DNA from: an uncultured virus (IMG/VR IMGVR_UViG_3300021400_004415)
Lineage: Duplodnaviria; Heunggongvirae; Uroviricota; Caudoviricetes
DNA: 20,000 nucleotides
IMG/VR virus record: IMGVR_UViG_3300021400_004415
Reading direction: 5' to 3' (one strand)
Shown here piece after piece: positions 5,050 to 17,453 of this stretch; position 1 is the stretch's first letter, and each line of letters opens with the position of its first letter. Both the position numbers and the translations under genes were made by a program. The notes beneath the pieces are model-generated. The model saw only the letters and a list, made by a program, of their open reading frames with translations. It did not search any database and had not been told where the DNA came from.

Positions 5050-5382
5050 TCAGACGAGCGAGTCTGCTGAAATTCTTGATTCTCGTGCCACTTCCACGGG
5101 GCCGTACTTCTCCTCATATAGGTCGATGTACTTTCGGATTGCCGCGTCAAGTAAATCCTTGTTAGTCAATCCGTTAATCCGTGCTATCTCACGTAGTTTC
5201 TCGTAGTTTTCACGGTTCAGATACAGCGACGTATAGACGCTGGATTCGTGGGCACGCACGCGGGTGTCCCCTCGTGCCGGTCTGCCGGGCCTTCCTGCGA
5301 AGGGCTGGCGTTTTAGGATTTTTTCGCCCTCCTGATTGAGGACGCTTTCAAGCCCGGACTTGATGTCATTTTTCTTTGCCAT
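5050..5382 (-). CDS. Small DNA-binding protein, probable ribbon-helix-helix partition adaptor for ParA
   Basis: A flexible basic N-terminus (GRPGRP) is followed by a beta-alpha-alpha pattern, YTSLYLNRENYEKLREIARINGLTNKDLLDAAIRKYI. It lies downstream of parA. Confidence 0.7.
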   Translation of the reverse strand: MAKKNDIKSGLESVLNQEGEKILKRQPFAGRPGRPARGDTRVRAHESSVYTSLYLNRENYEKLREIARINGLTNKDLLDAAIRKYIDLYEEKYGPVEVARESRISADSLV

Positions 5383-5470: not shown

Positions 5471-5677
5471 CTACCATTCTTTTGTGCTTTGGTCAAGGAT
5501 TTCAAAGTGAAAAGTCATATCCCTGAGAGCTTGACAGTAGTTTTTTCCCAGGCGGAAGCATGGTTCACGGAGTGAGCAGCACGAACAGGTTGCAATGGCT
5601 CCACCCTTGTTTTCTGTGATGATATGGAAGGCTCCATTTAGGATTATTCCTTCCTGTGTCGGCTGTACGTTTATCAT
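5471..5677 (-). CDS. Small Cys-rich hypothetical protein (68 aa)
   Basis: MINVQPTQEG...CSCCSLREPC...NYC...EW. The ATG at 5677 overlaps the parA stop (ATGA). This is the C-terminal part of the 159-aa track ORF. Confidence 0.6.
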   Translation of the reverse strand: MINVQPTQEGIILNGAFHIITENKGGAIATCSCCSLREPCFRLGKNYCQALRDMTFHFEILDQSTKEW

Positions 5678-6480
5678 ATCATGAAGCGTTTTTTGAATTC
5701 TTCGTAGAATTTTTCGTAGTCTGCGGCTCCGTTGCTCTTCGGAGCGTAGTCGAAGACGCTCTGGCGGTGCTGCGGGCATTCCGCCAGGCGCACGTTCTCG
5801 CGGATACGGGTCTGGAAGACCGTTTCTCCGTAGTGTGAGCGGAGGGCCTCGTCGACGGCCCCGTGCAGGTTCTTGCTGCCGTTGTAGTGTGTGATGAGGA
5901 TGCCGTCGATGCCTATCGAGGGGTCGAAGTAGTCCGCGAGTTCCGCGCACTTCGCCTGGAGTTTCTGGAGGCCCATGAGGGGCATGTATTCAGCCGTGGT
6001 AGGCACCACGAGGCCGTTCGATGCGACGAGGGCGTTCTGTGTCAGGAGTCCAAGGGACGGCGGGCAGTCGAGCAGCACTGCGTCGTAGGTCTTTTCCAGT
6101 TGGAGGTTCCGGAAGATGCGGCTCAGAAGCATCTCCCGGCTGGTCTTGGCCGTGAGTATGCTTTCCAGTTCCCCGGCATCGGGGCTTGACGGGATGAGGT
6201 CGAGGTTCGTTTCGGGGTGCTCGAACTCCTCTCCCCTGATGATTACGTCCGGCAGGGCGCCGAGCGGCGAGGACATGAGGGACAGGATGCCTCCCCTGTC
6301 GGCGGCGGGTTTCACGAAGCATTCCGTGAGCGAGCACTGTGCATCGAGGTCTACAAGGAGGGTCCGGTAGCCTTCCCTGGCAAGGAGGGTGCCGATGGCG
6401 GCCGTGGTGGTGGTCTTGCCTACGCCGCCCTTGTTGTTTGCGAAGGCTATGATTGCCGTTGCTGTTTTATTCTTTCTCAT
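5674..6480 (-). CDS. parA: ParA/Soj family partition ATPase
   Basis: Deviant Walker A NKGGVGKTTT, LVDLDAQ, LDCPPSLG and IRENVRLAE. Probable start MRKNK at 6480 (268 aa). No N-terminal HTH. Confidence 0.95.
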   Translation of the reverse strand: MRKNKTATAIIAFANNKGGVGKTTTTAAIGTLLAREGYRTLLVDLDAQCSLTECFVKPAADRGGILSLMSSPLGALPDVIIRGEEFEHPETNLDLIPSSPDAGELESILTAKTSREMLLSRIFRNLQLEKTYDAVLLDCPPSLGLLTQNALVASNGLVVPTTAEYMPLMGLQKLQAKCAELADYFDPSIGIDGILITHYNGSKNLHGAVDEALRSHYGETVFQTRIRENVRLAECPQHRQSVFDYAPKSNGAADYEKFYEEFKKRFMI

Positions 6481-6499
6481 TGTCTTTGAGTTTTTGATT

Positions 6500-7501
6500 T
6501 TAAAAACTGTTTTCCAGCAGGTCTTCCGGAGCGTGCTGGAGCCTTTCTTCATCCTCAATGGAGGCGGTATAAATCATCGAGGTGTTGACGGAAGAGTGTC
6601 TGAGCGCTCTCTTTACATCCATTATGGTCCCGCCATTCTTGATGATCTGCGTCGCTGTGGTGTGTCTGAGTGAGTGTGCCGAATATTCGTGGGAGTCGAG
6701 CCCTATGGCGCGTAATCCCTTCTTTATTATGAGCTGGATAAGTCTCGGCGTCATCGGTCCGCCTCTGTGCTCCTTTCCCTCTCCTTCACCCGTTTTCGAC
6801 GGGTGTCGGCCCTTTCCTTCAGTGGCAAAGAGGGGTTCTTCCTGGAGGGTGTTACCTCTTGTGTCAAGATAGGTCTTGATAGGTATCCACGCAGAGTTGG
6901 TAAGAACGACATACACGGAGTGGTCCGGGGCGTCCATTCCTTTTCCCCATACATATAGGATTCTTCTTCCGTTGCGGAAACTGATATCCGATATCTTCGC
7001 TCTTGACACCTCAATCGTCCTGAGACCCGTCCTGAGCATGAGGTTTACCATTGCCTTGTCCCTGGGGTTTTTGTACTGTTCAATCAGCTCTTTTCCCTGG
7101 AGGGTGGTGAGGTGCATTTTGATGAAATGCTCTTTCGTTCCTCCCTGGTTGACTCTCGGGGCCTTTACGCCGGCGGCTATGTTCGGATAGAGTTTCCTGG
7201 ATTCAGCCCACTGATAGAAGCGGTGAAGGGCTATGATATAAGCCCTTGTTGTGAGTACCCTGTGTCCGCTTGTGAGTAGGTATTGTTTGTAGATGATGAT
7301 GTCTTCGGCCTGTACTTCCGCAAGTTCTCTTCCGGTCTTGTCGAGCCACTTGAAGTATTGTCTTATGGCGTCGCCGTAAGTTTTTCTTGAGGTGTTTTTG
7401 ACATCAAGGGATGCAAGGAACGCCTTTATAACGGTGTCCTTGTCAAGTGTTACTTTTGCTACAGTGTTGTTTGACGATATTTTAGTTATATCTGTTGTCA
7501 T
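6500..7501 (-). CDS. Tyrosine recombinase (Xer/integrase family), probable multimer resolvase
   Basis: SAM-like N-domain plus catalytic motifs TGLR, WGKG, HSLRH, RHSS and TSMIY. Probable start MTTDI at 7501, just downstream of a promoter. Confidence 0.92.
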   Translation of the reverse strand: MTTDITKISSNNTVAKVTLDKDTVIKAFLASLDVKNTSRKTYGDAIRQYFKWLDKTGRELAEVQAEDIIIYKQYLLTSGHRVLTTRAYIIALHRFYQWAESRKLYPNIAAGVKAPRVNQGGTKEHFIKMHLTTLQGKELIEQYKNPRDKAMVNLMLRTGLRTIEVSRAKISDISFRNGRRILYVWGKGMDAPDHSVYVVLTNSAWIPIKTYLDTRGNTLQEEPLFATEGKGRHPSKTGEGEGKEHRGGPMTPRLIQLIIKKGLRAIGLDSHEYSAHSLRHTTATQIIKNGGTIMDVKRALRHSSVNTSMIYTASIEDEERLQHAPEDLLENSF

Positions 7502-7520: not shown

Positions 7521-7551
7521 CAAAGATAACAGTTTTTGTTATAAACACAAA
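7521..7551 (-). promoter_or_regulatory. Bacteroidetes sigma-A promoter for the recombinase-parA operon
   Basis: Minus strand TTTG (7551-7548), 19-nt spacer, TATCTTTG (7528-7521). Confidence 0.75.
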
Positions 7552-7884
7552 ACTTTTTATTTGTTGTGTGTGAATTTCTCGAATTCCGCTTTCGCGTCAA
7601 GGAACACGTTGTCGTCTTCTGATAGCGCCACTATGTCTGCGGCGGTGTACTTCCCAGTGGCTTTCTTTAGTGTTGTGGTGTAGAATACGGTTCCGACAGG
7701 GTATTTTGCCCTGGCGTTCTGGACACACGTACCGGAGCGTTTGTCTGTGACGAGGGCGTTATCCCTGATTGGGGTGCGGCCGAGCACCTGACCGGGCATC
7801 ACGGTCATCATCTTCTTGTCATGGAAGGAAGATATGTGCAGGAAGTGCAGTTTTGTTTTCATTACTTCAAAAAGTTTTGTGTTT
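7543..7884. repeat. Perfect 16-bp inverted repeat pair plus outer 10-bp inverted repeat
   Basis: AAACACAAAACTTTTT (7543-7558) / AAAAAGTTTTGTGTTT (7869-7884). Outer pair ACAAAGATAA (7520-7529) / TTATCTTTGT (7897-7906). Confidence 0.9.
7557..7862 (-). CDS. Hypothetical protein (101 aa)
   Basis: ATG start with protein-like sequence (MPGQ...YPVGTVFY). It fills the space between the inverted repeats. Confidence 0.65.
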   Translation of the reverse strand: MKTKLHFLHISSFHDKKMMTVMPGQVLGRTPIRDNALVTDKRSGTCVQNARAKYPVGTVFYTTTLKKATGKYTAADIVALSEDDNVFLDAKAEFEKFTHNK

Positions 7885-7905
7885 GAAAAAAATGTATTAT
7901 CTTTG
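7876..7905 (+). promoter_or_regulatory. Bacteroidetes sigma-A promoter for the ncRNA/tRNA transcript
   Basis: TTTG (7876-7879), 18-nt spacer, TATCTTTG (7898-7905). Confidence 0.75.
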
Positions 7906-7910
7906 TCTTC

Positions 7911-8013
7911 GGCTAAAGTTTTGTAAGCTGAATCGTTTCAGCGTCCAGTTGTTTCCTGTCACAGGGTCAACGGTCATTCTGGCCCTGTGGCGCAACTGGA
8001 GACTTTGCTTAGT
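7911..8013 (+). ncRNA. Candidate structured RNA of unknown family
   Basis: Predicted three-way junction: AAAGTT/GACTTT closing stem, a GCTGAA-TCGT-TTCAGC hairpin, and a long hairpin (TCCAGTTG/CAACTGGA plus TGTCACAGGGTC/GGCCCTGTGGCG). It begins right after the -7 box. Confidence 0.5.
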
Positions 8014-8043
8014 GATGCAGTTCTTTATTGGAGTTTTGTTGTT

Positions 8044-8125
8044 AGTCTGATGGCGGAACGGGTATACGCGACGGTCTCAAAAGCCGTTTCCGGAAGGATT
8101 GAGGGTTCGATCCCCTCTCAGACTA
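8044..8125 (+). tRNA. tRNA-Leu (anticodon CAA)
   Basis: Acceptor stem AGTCTGA/TCAGACT, anticodon arm ACGGT-CTCAAAA-GCCGT, long variable arm, T arm GAGGG-TTCGATC-CCCTC, discriminator A. CCA is not encoded. Confidence 0.92.
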
Positions 8126-8133
8126 CAAGACAT

Positions 8134-8205
<72 letters not shown>

Positions 8206-8295
8206 CAAAGCAATCATTCTCGCTTTTTTGCAGTGCAAGTGCAGCTGCGATGATGATTTCTTTTTTCATTGTGTTTCATCAAGGTATTAACGAAA

Positions 8296-8328
8296 CAAGG
8301 GCACCCGGGAGGGTGCCTTTGCTTTTTT
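8296..8328 (+). terminator. Rho-independent terminator of the tRNA transcript
   Basis: CAAGGGCACCC-GGGA-GGGTGCCTTTG followed by CTTTTTT. Confidence 0.85.
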
Positions 8329-8348
8329 GAAGTATTGGAAGTAGTAGA

Positions 8349-8384
8349 TTAAAGGGCTTCCCCGAAGGAATCTCCGGGGAAGTC
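8349..8384 (-). terminator. Rho-independent terminator after the histone-H1-like gene
   Basis: Minus strand GACTTCCCCG...CGGGGAAGCC followed by CTTTAA, about 11 nt after the stop codon. Confidence 0.65.
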
Positions 8385-8395
8385 ATCGTCAACCG

Positions 8396-10864: not shown

Positions 10865-11698
10865 TTATTTTGATGTTTTTCTGTATGGAACTGGTTCCAT
10901 GCCGTGCAGTTTGTAGAAGTACACTGTATAGAGTGCCGCAAGGAAGGCTGGCATGTAGCCCCTTGTCTCCGAAGGAAGGTATTGGTAGATTGTCCAGTAG
11001 TCGTCGGTCTCTGCTTTCCTTACGGCTTTCATCACGTTACCTGAGCCGCAGTTGTATGCGCTGATGGCGAGCGGCCACGAGCCCCAGCGACGGTAGGCGT
11101 CCCGGAGGTATTTCGCTGCCGCCCTGGTGGACGGTTCTTTCTCGAAGCGTTCGTCAATGAGTTCGTTGCATTCAAGCCCGTAACGCCTTGCTGTGTCCGG
11201 CATCAGTTGCCACAGGCCCGCTGCGCCAGCCGGGGAGACGGCGTTGGGGTTGAGAGCGGACTCGACTATAGCCAGGGCGGTCAGGTCCTCCGGCACGCCG
11301 TAGGCGCGGAAGATGCTGCGCATCTGCCCTTCCTCGGCGAGGTACTTGCCGAGGATTCGGAGGAGCTGGCGGCGGTGGTTGACTATATAATCCGCTATCT
11401 GCGCTTCAAGGATGTCGTTGTATGGAACGAGGAACTGTTGCGGAAGGAGGTTGATACGTGCCCCCAGTACGCTTTCGGACGGGAGGTCTGTCGGGGCGTA
11501 CGGAACGACGGGTTCCGGAGCCTCCGCCGGGGCAGGCTCCGTCGGGGCTTCCTCTTCGGCGAACTTCCACGTATCGAGGCTTGCGATATTCCCCTTCCAT
11601 TCCGTGATGGGTTCTTCGTCCAGGGAATGAATTATCTGTGCCCCCATAGGGAGGCACAGTGTGAGGAAAAGCGTGCAGACAAGGAGATTTTTTATCAT
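10865..11698 (-). CDS. Secreted lytic transglycosylase (SLT domain, MltD-like, no LysM)
   Basis: Signal peptide plus motifs LAIVES, AVSPAGAAGLWQLMP, AYNCG and ETRGY. Confidence 0.92.
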   Translation of the reverse strand: MIKNLLVCTLFLTLCLPMGAQIIHSLDEEPITEWKGNIASLDTWKFAEEEAPTEPAPAEAPEPVVPYAPTDLPSESVLGARINLLPQQFLVPYNDILEAQIADYIVNHRRQLLRILGKYLAEEGQMRSIFRAYGVPEDLTALAIVESALNPNAVSPAGAAGLWQLMPDTARRYGLECNELIDERFEKEPSTRAAAKYLRDAYRRWGSWPLAISAYNCGSGNVMKAVRKAETDDYWTIYQYLPSETRGYMPAFLAALYTVYFYKLHGMEPVPYRKTSK

Positions 11699-15215: not shown

Positions 15216-17453
15216 TTATTCTTGTTTCCCTTCAAGGATTTTCTTTATCGGGTCTTCGGACTCCTCCTCTTCTATCTCAGTCTCGTCCGTTATTTCTTCG
15301 TCCTCCGGCAGTTCTTCGTGAATGAGGTCACGTATATCCTGTTTGATTTGTTTGTAGTTCTTGTCTACGACGATGGCTACATTCTCTTCAATCATCTTTT
15401 CGGCCTCTGCCATAAGGAGTTCTTCTATCTTGCCCTTTGACAGGGTCTTTATGAGGGCCTGTTTCCTGAGTTCCATTTCCTCCGTATCGGAGATGATTCC
15501 TTGTTCAAGGAGTTGCCCTGTAGCCCAGTCATCTAGGATTTGGTTACGAAGCTGGTCTTCGTGGACCGATTCGATGATGGCGTCATCGTCAAAGGAGGTG
15601 ATAAGCGGGAGTTTCTTGAATTTCTTTTCCTTTGCAATCCATTCCTTGACATTGATGTCCACTTCGCCACAGAAGAACTTGCGTTTGATTCTCTCTTTCT
15701 TGTTGTTGTTATCAGCTACCTTGCCGAAGAAGATACCCTGTGACAGGGTCTCAATCTTCGATACGGGCATGATATCCTCCTGGTGGAAGGATATCTGCAA
15801 GGATTCGGAGTCGACGTTTTGAGTCTGGCTCTGAGTCATCCGGTATTCCTTACCGAGGGAGTGGGAGAGGTCCTGGGCTGTCTTGCCGTTGACCTGTCCC
15901 GCTATGATGGTACCGACGGTATTGAAGATGACGTCGGCTTCCTTCTGGGTGTAGTCTCGTATGAGCTGTGTCTTGTCCTGTGCTCCGAAGACGATGGCTA
16001 CCTTGTTGGAACGGGCCGTTGCAATGAGGTTGTCGAGGCCCTTAAGGAAGATAGTCGGCAGCTCGTCGAGAAGGATGCCGCACTTGCGTTTATGCTTGCG
16101 GTTGGCAAGCTTGAACAGGCGGCTGGTATAGAGTGCCAGTACCGTTCCGTAGATTGCCTGGCGGTTGGGGTCGTTGCCGAGGCAGAGGATTTTCGGAGCG
16201 TCCGGCTCGTTGATGTCGAGGGTGAAGTCGTCTCCGGAGAGAACCCAGTAAAGGGCCGGGGATGACATCTTGTTAAGCACGATCTTCGCCGAGGCGAGCT
16301 GGCCCTGCAGCTGGTCCTGTGCTCCGCCCTCCAGGGCGTCGATGAAGGGGCCTATCTTGGTCTCCAGTTCTTCGTACTGTGATACGATGGCGAAGACTTT
16401 TTTGTAATCCTGTCCAAGGAGTTCGATAAGATGCGGGAAGGTGCAGTAGATACCTCCCTTATAGATAGACAGGAAGTAAATCAGGATATCCACGAAAAGG
16501 GTTGCGGAGCGGGAGAAGAAGTCCGGCTTTTCGAGGGATTCCGGAGAGACGTTGGTCCAGATGACTTCCGCTATCTCTGCGGAGTCGGCTGGATCCGTGA
16601 TGTAGTTACGGTGTATGGGGTTGCATCTGTGCGAGTAACGGGGGTTGTTGAAATTCAGCACGAAGAACTCCGGGGCCTTCGGGTCACGGATGTACTTCGG
16701 CGCGTCTTCAATCTTGCCGTAGGCGGGGTTCTTGACGGGCGGGTACTTCTCCAGGTACTCGTTATAGAGTATGGTTGACAGGTCCGGGAACTTGTAGTCA
16801 TACACGCACATGGTATAGTCCTTCTGCATCATCTGGTGGATGACGGGGTTATATATCGAGAAGGACTTACCGGAGCCGGGGGTGCCGAGAATCATCACGG
16901 CCCTGAAAGGGTTCACAATGTTTATCCATCCCCGATGCATCTTCTGCTTGTATTGGAATTTCGTCGGGAGGTTGATGCTGTCCGGTGTGTCAATGAGGTA
17001 CTCTGTTTGCTCGAAGGTCTCGTCTACGTCGTTAAGGGGCTTCTGGAAGCCCATGAGGTTACGGCTGATGGCTGCTATCGCCCAGCTGGAAAGGATATAC
17101 CCCGATACGGTCGTAAGGAAATAGAAATACGGGTTTTTCGGCCACACGAAGAAGAGGGCGATGCCGGCGGTGAGCCCTATGATTATGGCCGCCCAGCTGG
17201 TCTCCTTTCCTTTTCCGCTTCGCGTTATATGGGTGAGTGCCACCAGCAGCAGGATGATGACCTTCGACTGGAACGGCGTCTTGAAGATGCCGCTCTTGTG
17301 AAGTCCGATCATCAGGGAATCCACCACGGGATGATGGAGGCCGTAGGAGGCAAAGACCGGGTGGCAGTAGTAATAGATATTGACCAGCAATATCGCTGCC
17401 GCGAAGACGATGATGTAGTTGAACGTCTTTTCGTATTCTTGTTTGTTTGACAT
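15216..17453 (-). CDS. mobC: Type IV secretion coupling protein (VirD4/TraD-like, Bacteroidetes MobC/YWFCY family)
   Basis: N-terminal TM helices with IYYYC, GWINIVNPFRA, Walker A GTPGSGKS, YDYKFPDL, SHRCNP, Walker B LLDELPT, LIATARSNK and an acidic tail. Confidence 0.9.
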   Translation of the reverse strand: MSNKQEYEKTFNYIIVFAAAILLVNIYYYCHPVFASYGLHHPVVDSLMIGLHKSGIFKTPFQSKVIILLLVALTHITRSGKGKETSWAAIIIGLTAGIALFFVWPKNPYFYFLTTVSGYILSSWAIAAISRNLMGFQKPLNDVDETFEQTEYLIDTPDSINLPTKFQYKQKMHRGWINIVNPFRAVMILGTPGSGKSFSIYNPVIHQMMQKDYTMCVYDYKFPDLSTILYNEYLEKYPPVKNPAYGKIEDAPKYIRDPKAPEFFVLNFNNPRYSHRCNPIHRNYITDPADSAEIAEVIWTNVSPESLEKPDFFSRSATLFVDILIYFLSIYKGGIYCTFPHLIELLGQDYKKVFAIVSQYEELETKIGPFIDALEGGAQDQLQGQLASAKIVLNKMSSPALYWVLSGDDFTLDINEPDAPKILCLGNDPNRQAIYGTVLALYTSRLFKLANRKHKRKCGILLDELPTIFLKGLDNLIATARSNKVAIVFGAQDKTQLIRDYTQKEADVIFNTVGTIIAGQVNGKTAQDLSHSLGKEYRMTQSQTQNVDSESLQISFHQEDIMPVSKIETLSQGIFFGKVADNNNKKERIKRKFFCGEVDINVKEWIAKEKKFKKLPLITSFDDDAIIESVHEDQLRNQILDDWATGQLLEQGIISDTEEMELRKQALIKTLSKGKIEELLMAEAEKMIEENVAIVVDKNYKQIKQDIRDLIHEELPEDEEITDETEIEEEESEDPIKKILEGKQE

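Follow-up and report, generated by a model that had tools for sequence, protein, structure and literature searches.

In Escherichia coli, 3′ETS-leuZ, a transcribed spacer of a tRNA operon, reportedly persists as an RNA and acts as a sponge, and the tRNA cluster of phage T4 is said to encode small stable RNAs designated species 1 and 2. The sequence of tRNA genes is also a classic target of integrases, which use the 3′ part of these genes and duplicate it upon integration. Permuted tRNA genes are present in the red alga Cyanidioschyzon, and a frequently discussed role of tRNAs on mobile elements is to counter defences that cleave tRNAs. Here, we compare with these systems a structured sequence from the uncultured virus record IMGVR_UViG_3300021400_004415, analysed as a stretch of 20,000 nucleotides (the window; all coordinates refer to it). 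We find this structured leader to be real, derived from a tRNA and an orphan, any independent function being putative.

RNAfold predicts for the + strand of positions 7911–8013 a three-helix structure of 36 pairs, five of them G·U, with a minimum free energy of −44.9 kcal/mol. According to this fold and its pair list, the structured leader extends over 7911–8009. Helix P1 (7911–7920/8001–8009) includes the pairing of AAAGTT (7915–7920) with GACTTT (8001–8006), and P2 is a hairpin (7927–7942) formed by GCTGAA (7927–7932) and TTCAGC (7937–7942). In the lower part of P3 (7944–7951/7993–8000), TCCAGTTG pairs with CAACTGGA. The upper part (7957–7969/7980–7992) is set off by a 5-nt bulge (7952–7956), includes TGTCACAGGGTC (7957–7968) opposite GGCCCTGTGGCG (7981–7992) and ends in a 10-nt apical loop. 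The original prediction had drawn the stems of this structure, and every one of them is recovered at the same coordinates by RNAfold.

The fold is more stable than expected from dinucleotide composition. None of 200 dinucleotide shuffles (mean −26.7 kcal/mol, s.d. 3.4) is as stable as the + strand of 7911–8013 (z −5.37), and the reverse strand folds with −31.7 kcal/mol (z −3.59). In a GC-corrected scan of 7960 sliding 103-nt windows, taken from both strands of the 20 kb, 7911–8013(+) ranks fourth (residual z −3.35), behind loci at 15801(+), 8286(+) and 11276(+). The sequence is a folding outlier within the window, yet not a unique one. Two of these three, 15801–15903(+) and 11276–11378(+), with GC-adjusted residual z values of −3.78 and −3.42, lie antisense to protein genes (those of the coupling protein and the SLT protein).

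All non-Watson–Crick pairs of the stems are G·U on the + strand. This observation of the original prediction is correct, but its interpretation as a sign of RNA-level selection fails a control for strand composition. Over its full length, the window is rich in G+T on the + strand (G 28.5%, T 29.1%, A 18.9%, C 23.5%), so that G·U pairs are expected on this strand anyway. On average, 103-nt windows of this strand fold 5.8 kcal/mol (s.d. 5.4) better than their reverse complements, and the strand difference of 13.2 kcal/mol at the leader is equalled or exceeded by 148 of 1990 windows. Since one of the wobble pairs is, in addition, inherited from a tRNA acceptor stem (see below), the G·U argument carries little weight.

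The leader begins 6 nt past a Bacteroides-type −7 promoter box, TATCTTTG (7898–7905, + strand), and ends 34 nt ahead of tRNA-Leu(CAA) at 8044–8126, confirming its noted position a few nucleotides after this sequence and before this tRNA. Because TATCTTTG fits the Bacteroides −7 consensus TAnnTTTG, as given in PMC4747536, the predicted transcription start falls on the first paired bases of the structure. The box is invariant across four variant haplotypes, and TTTG motifs are found upstream of it at 7876–7879 and 7882–7885. A sigma-70 scan detected no promoter at 7898–7905, as expected for this phylum. In two metagenome runs (X9 and X13), the depth rises over 7848–7909 owing to extra contigs that match the promoter region only; similar promoter sequence therefore occurs elsewhere in those communities.

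Downstream of the leader, a weakly structured, U-rich spacer (8010–8043, + strand) extends as far as tRNA-Leu +1, where RNase P is predicted to cut. tRNA-Leu(CAA), on the + strand, is called by ARAGORN and scores 54.4 bits with the Rfam tRNA model. It has an unusual A1–U72 acceptor end and a D-arm that differs from those of host tRNA-Leu genes; its matches in 400 other genomes of the order are partial only and 74–89% identical. The second gene, tRNA-Met (8134–8206, + strand; ARAGORN, Rfam 61.4 bits with a non-pair mark at position 1), is initiator-like, with a U1×U72 mismatch and an anticodon stem that has three G–C pairs (GGG/CCC) at its base. A tRNA-Met from the nearest genus (L073) shares 87% identity with it. 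Conjugative elements do not usually carry an initiator tRNA. An intrinsic terminator of the tRNA operon is located at 8296–8331 (+ strand), with an 11-bp stem containing seven G–C pairs, followed by CTTTTTTG. The terminator scan found no site within 7911–8043 on either strand, and the leader is not of the terminator or attenuator type. Its assignment to the tRNA operon is positional only: the −7 box, the tRNAs (8044–8206) and the terminator are all on the + strand.

Two further features are observed beyond the tRNA genes. The trailer of tRNA-Met, 8253–8331(+), matches the FopS sRNA family of Bacteroidetes below threshold (24.6 bits, the gathering score being 56; E 0.17), over the whole model and with the terminator hairpin included; no canonical −7 box is present just upstream. 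FopS sRNAs are described in PMC11697453 as repressing translation of SusC-like transporters in B. thetaiotaomicron. In a metagenome contig of run X11, the 74 nt of 8322–8395 are replaced by 22 other letters, and many small insertions are found in this segment in runs X5 and X9, which makes the spacer between the tRNA terminator and the gene for an Hc1-like protein a hot spot for insertions and deletions.

The origin of part of the leader can be recognised. Positions 7981–8000 (+ strand) are an exact copy of nucleotides 1–20 of tRNA-Arg, comprising the 5′ acceptor strand, U8, the 5′ strand of the D-stem and the D-loop. This 20-mer has 38 exact matches in the genome collection, and tRNA-Arg(ACG) begins at the match in 10 of 12 loci scanned. 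Among 40 loci matching the 20-mer, ARAGORN identifies 38 tRNA-Arg genes with 11 distinct sequences, mostly from Flavobacteriaceae, and a phage tRNA-Arg(CCT) opens with the same 20 nt. What had been noticed as a likeness to the first 20 nt of an Arg-like tRNA is the exact start of real tRNA-Arg genes.

We find a second match, which goes beyond the 20-mer likeness of the original prediction. On comparison with tRNA-Arg sequences, 7955–7969 (+ strand) resembles the 3′ end of the same tRNA-Arg, and CAGGGTC together with the following A (7962–7969) equals the 3′ acceptor strand, with U71, and the discriminator A73 of the same genes. One tRNA-Arg variant ends in CCTGTCAGGGTCA; the window has CCTGTCA-CA-GGGTCA, in which 13 of 13 bases agree apart from the 2-nt CA insertion. 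The wobble pair G7982·U7967 therefore corresponds to G2·U71 of those tRNAs. Thus, the top seven base pairs of P3 and the next A are a tRNA-Arg acceptor stem with its discriminator, the two strands standing in reverse order, an arrangement expected of a permuted copy or of two tandem copies where they join. Together, the 20-mer and the reversed acceptor stem lead us to read the leader as a tRNA-Arg relic.

Outside these two segments, the leader does not resemble a tRNA. No remnant of tRNA positions 21–75 is detected in 8001–8043, whose score is equalled or exceeded by 496 of 500 shuffles. A decayed-tRNA reading of the interior was rejected on comparing 7911–7961 with tRNA-Arg positions 21–65 (p 0.06–0.74 over 11 variants). 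The generic Rfam tRNA model has no match in 7906–7975 or 7976–8043, even at E ≤ 10. Accordingly, it is the two ends that carry the relic reading, the interior not being tRNA-like and the generic model scoring neither half. Of the two tRNA genes that ARAGORN calls in the window, neither lies in the leader, and within 7800–8350 only the two known tRNAs match RF00005, for which a cloverleaf has to score at least 29 bits. A pattern for a tandem tRNA-Arg junction had 23 matches in viral contigs, none of them inside tRNA genes; this result, the missing match to the generic model and the comparison of the interior all speak against a simple decayed tRNA.

The nearest genome, G001 (65% complete), contains an identical copy of the leader on a 2.9-kb contig. 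Across 101 genomes of the nearest genus, the 20-mer is never within three mismatches of a tRNA; the 13 three-mismatch matches are all outside tRNAs, and a reversed-pattern control gives 10. Searching 400 further genomes of the order yielded three matches within two mismatches, in a tRNA-Arg(TCG), in a coding sequence and elsewhere. The tRNA-Arg(TCG), at two mismatches, is the closest tRNA in the order and the only tRNA-Arg of these 400 genomes within that distance. The one-mismatch match in the order (L226) was discarded, as it lies inside a protein-coding stretch reading ...GPVYGAQWRNW..., presumably a thymidylate-synthase motif. The tRNA-Arg of the presumed host clade hence does not match the 20-mer, and the tRNA-Arg piece appears to have come from elsewhere and not to be fitted to the present host. 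An imported relic agrees better with these data than does an agent directed at host tRNA, and the proposal of a decoy or of an antisense RNA against host tRNAs is weakened, given that no tRNA of the genus lies within three mismatches and a single tRNA-Arg of the order within two. Complementarity of the leader to the rest of the window is at chance level, the longest run being 13 nt, on an unlikely transcript.

No family of RNAs could be assigned. With the 4227 models of Rfam 15, among them Y-RNA-like and Bacteroidales motifs, the leader has no match at the gathering score or at E ≤ 10; narrow Rfam scans returned chance-level rows only (mir-722, 13 bits; uup, 9.7 bits). This bears out the description of the leader as unassigned, for which a strong Rfam hit would have been damaging. 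Its suggested membership in the Y-RNA class finds no support: a scan of 16 ORFs of the window against Pfam revealed no TROVE (Rsr/Ro60) domain, which speaks against a Y-RNA or YrlA-type RNA.

Relatives are equally scarce. BLAST searches with 7860–8045 against PLSDB plasmids gave no match, and those with 7850–8260 against phages gave tRNA-Met matches only. Among 61 relatives, 7880–8045 is found at full length in G001 only; seven others have 22–31-nt fragments, in six cases in the promoter part. A covariance model built on the leader (R1, one distinct sequence) detects G001 only in 151 genomes of the genus. With tRNA-Leu as an anchor, there was no match in viral contigs, and the only close match in 401 genomes of the order was in G001. 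The same anchor located six loci in metagenomes, of which only one (L096) is homologous, at 100% identity. A hairpin-shaped pattern had 116 matches in viral contigs, all of them unrelated palindromes. BLAST and the covariance model each return one match in G001 (genome 65% complete), indicating a single leader copy. A MITE or REP-type repeat was rejected, as there is one match in G001 and no second copy in the window. In the searches made, the leader is an orphan, represented by identical copies and gut-metagenome variants only.

The window belongs to a conjugative, plasmid-like element of animal-gut bacteria of the Bacteroidales type. It encodes a type IV coupling protein (T4, YWFCY domain), topoisomerase III, an SLT transglycosylase, UvrD- and RecD2-like helicases, an Hc1-like protein and NrdD, as well as ParA, an ORF56-like copy-control protein and an Xer-like tyrosine recombinase. 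The coupling protein, topoisomerase III, SLT, UvrD, ParA and the recombinase substantiate the mobile-element context that had been proposed. The recombinase gene (6500–7498, − strand) lies about 400 bp from the leader, with ParA (5674–6558) beside it and the ORF56-like protein (5050–5382) beside ParA; the three look like a plasmid maintenance module. The nearest plasmid recombinases, from Flavobacterium and Tenacibaculum, share 39–41% identity and are encoded beside DnaB-like and ParA genes. Flavobacteriaceae plasmids with a related recombinase have no leader-like intergenic sequence beside the gene, and the recombinase as an anchor had no match in viral contigs. In the Flavobacterium plasmid NZ_CP092372.1 (L224, 2400–2480), iteron-like direct repeats GCTATCAGACTTAAAAGTTTA and a repeated palindrome are observed upstream of the recombinase. 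They are probably a plasmid origin or operator and are unrelated in sequence to the window.

Between the recombinase and the tRNA operon lies a divergent gene for a 101-residue protein of no known family (P0001; 7557–7862, − strand). It is a real gene, since 9 of its 11 variable sites are synonymous third positions. No family was found in Pfam, NCBIfam or PHROGs, and the protein atlas gave no usable match. The gene occurs in 2 of 401 genus genomes, with a 38%-identical relative in G008 that has no adjoining tRNA operon; as an anchor, it found one 30%-identical viral locus without tRNAs, and no plasmid match. Its upstream region has no recognisable TAnnTTTG box. A 24-nt inverted repeat with 88% complementarity (7535–7558 and 7869–7892) is present here, and two similar A-rich promoter upstream regions flank the gene, facing outward, one to the recombinase and the other to the tRNAs.

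The leader is present in 20 public runs from eight studies, mostly animal-gut metagenomes; it was present in none of the public runs labelled as RNA, which contained at most 0.06 of the sampled leader words. To describe its variation, we used contigs from four runs of four studies, with one leader-spanning contig per run. These show 14–22 differences over about 470–580 nt (94–97% similarity), and three of the four have a 1-nt deletion. Six leader positions differ. Two changes are in the unpaired loop of P2 (7934 C>T in two runs and 7935 G>A in all four). In P3, 7945 C>T (one run) turns C–G into U·G, 7963 A>G (four runs) turns A–U into G·U, and 7990 G>A (four runs) turns U·G into U–A. In P1, 8004 T>C (two runs) breaks an A–U pair. 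Hence, of the four changes at paired positions, three are one-sided and preserve the pair and one breaks it. P2 and P3 are kept in five of five haplotypes, from at least five studies, and P1 re-pairs in the two with 8004 T>C. The haplotypes fold with −44.9, −44.8, −44.8, −42.0 and −39.1 kcal/mol.

The original prediction looked to homologues for RNA-level selection, and the variants do not bear this out. No compensatory change is found in the four variant haplotypes, whose divergence is too low for a fair test. Five of the six leader changes are compatible with the structure; as 68 of the 99 possible transitions would be so too, this proportion lacks significance (p 0.39). Variable sites number 6 of 99 in the leader versus 6 of 34 in the spacer at 8010–8043 (Fisher p 0.075), the spacer being the most variable part; the promoter region has 3 of 48, the neighbouring gene 11 of 263 and tRNA-Leu 3 of 83. 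Since all four variants have A at 7990, the majority haplotype matches tRNA-Arg at 19 of 20 positions, and the exact 20/20 identity is limited to the haplotype of the window and its identical copies.

Taken together, the two tRNA-Arg ends, the absence of relatives, the single copy and the near-neutral variation favour a tRNA-Arg relic that now forms the 5′ leader of a tRNA operon and has at most a role in cis, a reading to which we give about even chances of being correct. Judged by position, transcription as an operon leader is very likely. The stretch would be transcribed as the 5′ leader of the operon of tRNA-Leu(CAA) and the initiator-like tRNA-Met, with a predicted start about 6 nt past the TATCTTTG box, at the first paired base. 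The head of the operon may once have been occupied by one or two tRNA-Arg genes, which a rearrangement, through tandem copies or a template switch followed by deletions, could have turned into a stable hairpin. This hairpin would be co-transcribed and removed by an RNase P cut at tRNA-Leu +1. Its present role, if any, would most likely be in cis, as a self-contained leader that shields the 5′ end and spares the folding of the tRNAs. A neutral relic is expected to decay, and the intact 20-mer and the fit of the three helices therefore count against the relic reading; the undecayed identity to distant tRNAs and the fitting helices could reflect selection for an unnamed function.

Alternatively, the leader might be an independent, stable small RNA of the mobile element, freed from the tRNA precursor by RNase P and trimmed to P1. 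It would act in trans as a tRNA mimic or decoy, for example for a nuclease that targets tRNAs or an enzyme that binds them, or as an antisense RNA to tRNA-Arg. Both ends are paired in P1, as in many stable RNAs, and the three-way junction has a z of −5.4. Furthermore, P2 and P3 are retained in the five haplotypes from at least five studies, and the leader contains genuine acceptor and D-region sequence of tRNA-Arg and adjoins element-borne tRNAs. However, compensatory changes are absent, the substitutions could be neutral (p 0.39), the change 8004 T>C disrupts P1 in two of the four variants, and the searches made found no relative outside this element lineage. Moreover, no tRNA in the 101 genomes of the nearest genus is within three mismatches of the arm, complementarity in the window does not exceed chance, and no tRNA-like or Y-RNA-like Rfam match exists. 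We regard a trans-acting RNA of this type as improbable, and a conserved trans-acting RNA as less likely than a leader with a role in cis. A more specific variant invokes an ‘inside-out’ tRNA-Arg mimic with an authentic acceptor stem (G2·U71, A73), loop-closed and extended by the D-region, which would be expressed from the tRNA promoter at the level of tRNAs. A tRNA-processing enzyme or a tRNA-directed defence enzyme could recognise this mimic, RNase P cutting its apical loop or an enzyme binding it as a decoy. If true, it would protect the element's own tRNAs or the host tRNA pool after conjugative entry; we consider it very unlikely. It is also conceivable, though we think it unlikely, that the leader has no function at all and is an accidental, rearrangement-derived inverted repeat in an intergenic, G+T-rich strand, unselected and not necessarily transcribed as a unit. 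In agreement with this, the + strand folds 5.8 kcal/mol better overall, 148 of 1990 windows have as large a strand difference, three other loci of the window are equal or stronger GC-adjusted outliers, and homologues of the leader are absent; it varies at the same rate (6 of 99) as the promoter region (3 of 48) and the mostly synonymous sites of the neighbouring gene (11 of 263). Yet a sequence placed directly between a canonical −7 box and tRNAs could hardly escape transcription, the adjoining spacer is more variable than the leader (p 0.075), and three nested helices exceed a simple inverted duplication.

The neighbourhood of the leader also raises the possibility of a site acting at the DNA level, either a recombination (multimer-resolution or att) site for the Xer-like recombinase, whose gene in the ParA/copy-control module is some 400 bp away, or a hairpin that forms in the single + strand during conjugative transfer or replication, of the priming or single-strand promoter type. 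The element is conjugative, as indicated by its coupling protein, and single-stranded DNA tolerates G·T pairs, which means that the strand asymmetry is not specific to RNA. The geometry is atypical, however. Sites of the Xer/Cre type (dif/lox) have inverted arms of 11–13 bp around a 6–8-bp spacer, whereas the arms 7957–7969/7980–7992 are 13 nt long, have a 10-nt spacer and are identical as DNA repeats at 9 of 12 positions. The substitutions 7963 A>G and 7990 G>A leave this DNA symmetry at 9/12, while all 12 RNA pairs stay. The tRNA piece is the 5′ end, not the 3′ part on which integrases act, and no matching tRNA is found in the nearest genus. In addition, the structure opens exactly at the predicted transcription start, two extra helices would be useless to a core site, and nothing similar is found next to the recombinase genes of the related Flavobacteriaceae plasmids. 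A DNA-level site thus appears doubtful to us. As a whole, the original interpretation is partly supported, and the case for an independently selected RNA is weak.

A tRNA-Arg relic at this position would still be instructive. If it is only a relic, the leader shows how dead tRNA genes on mobile elements can become hairpins that mimic new non-coding RNAs, a caution for structure-based RNA discovery, above all on G+T-skewed strands. If it accumulates as RNA, it would be an unusual small RNA derived from tRNA fragments and expressed from a tRNA promoter, beside an initiator tRNA on a conjugative element of Bacteroidales, and would bear on how plasmids cope with host defences directed at tRNAs or with translation in a host they have just entered.

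Among known systems, the leader resembles 3′ETS-leuZ and the T4 species 1 and 2 RNAs in being structured, about 100 nt long and, by position, inside a tRNA primary transcript, from which tRNA-processing nucleases would free it. In contrast to these RNAs, which are 3′ or internal spacers, it is placed as a 5′ leader, contains tRNA-Arg fragments, has neither a known partner RNA nor a sequence relation to them, and would accumulate only hypothetically. With att-site remnants and tRNA pseudogenes it shares an exact tRNA segment outside a functional tRNA gene, on a mobile element and beside a tyrosine recombinase gene. Unlike att-site remnants, it has the 5′ end of the tRNA (nt 1–20), paired with an upstream complementary arm, and no matching host tRNA in the genomes searched. 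As in members of the Rfam tRNA family RF00005, U8, A14 and G18G19 are present in its 20 nt, which equal those of real tRNA-Arg; unlike these, the leader has no cloverleaf, no score at E ≤ 10 and no ARAGORN call. As in permuted or tandem tRNA genes, the acceptor 3′ strand and discriminator stand upstream of the 5′ strand, with a short linker and a stem that is ‘inside out’, whereas a T arm, an anticodon arm and the closure of the D-stem are not statistically recognisable, and there is no sign of maturation. Both the sequence and the arrangement of the leader are new, but it is ordinary in kind unless expression and function emerge.
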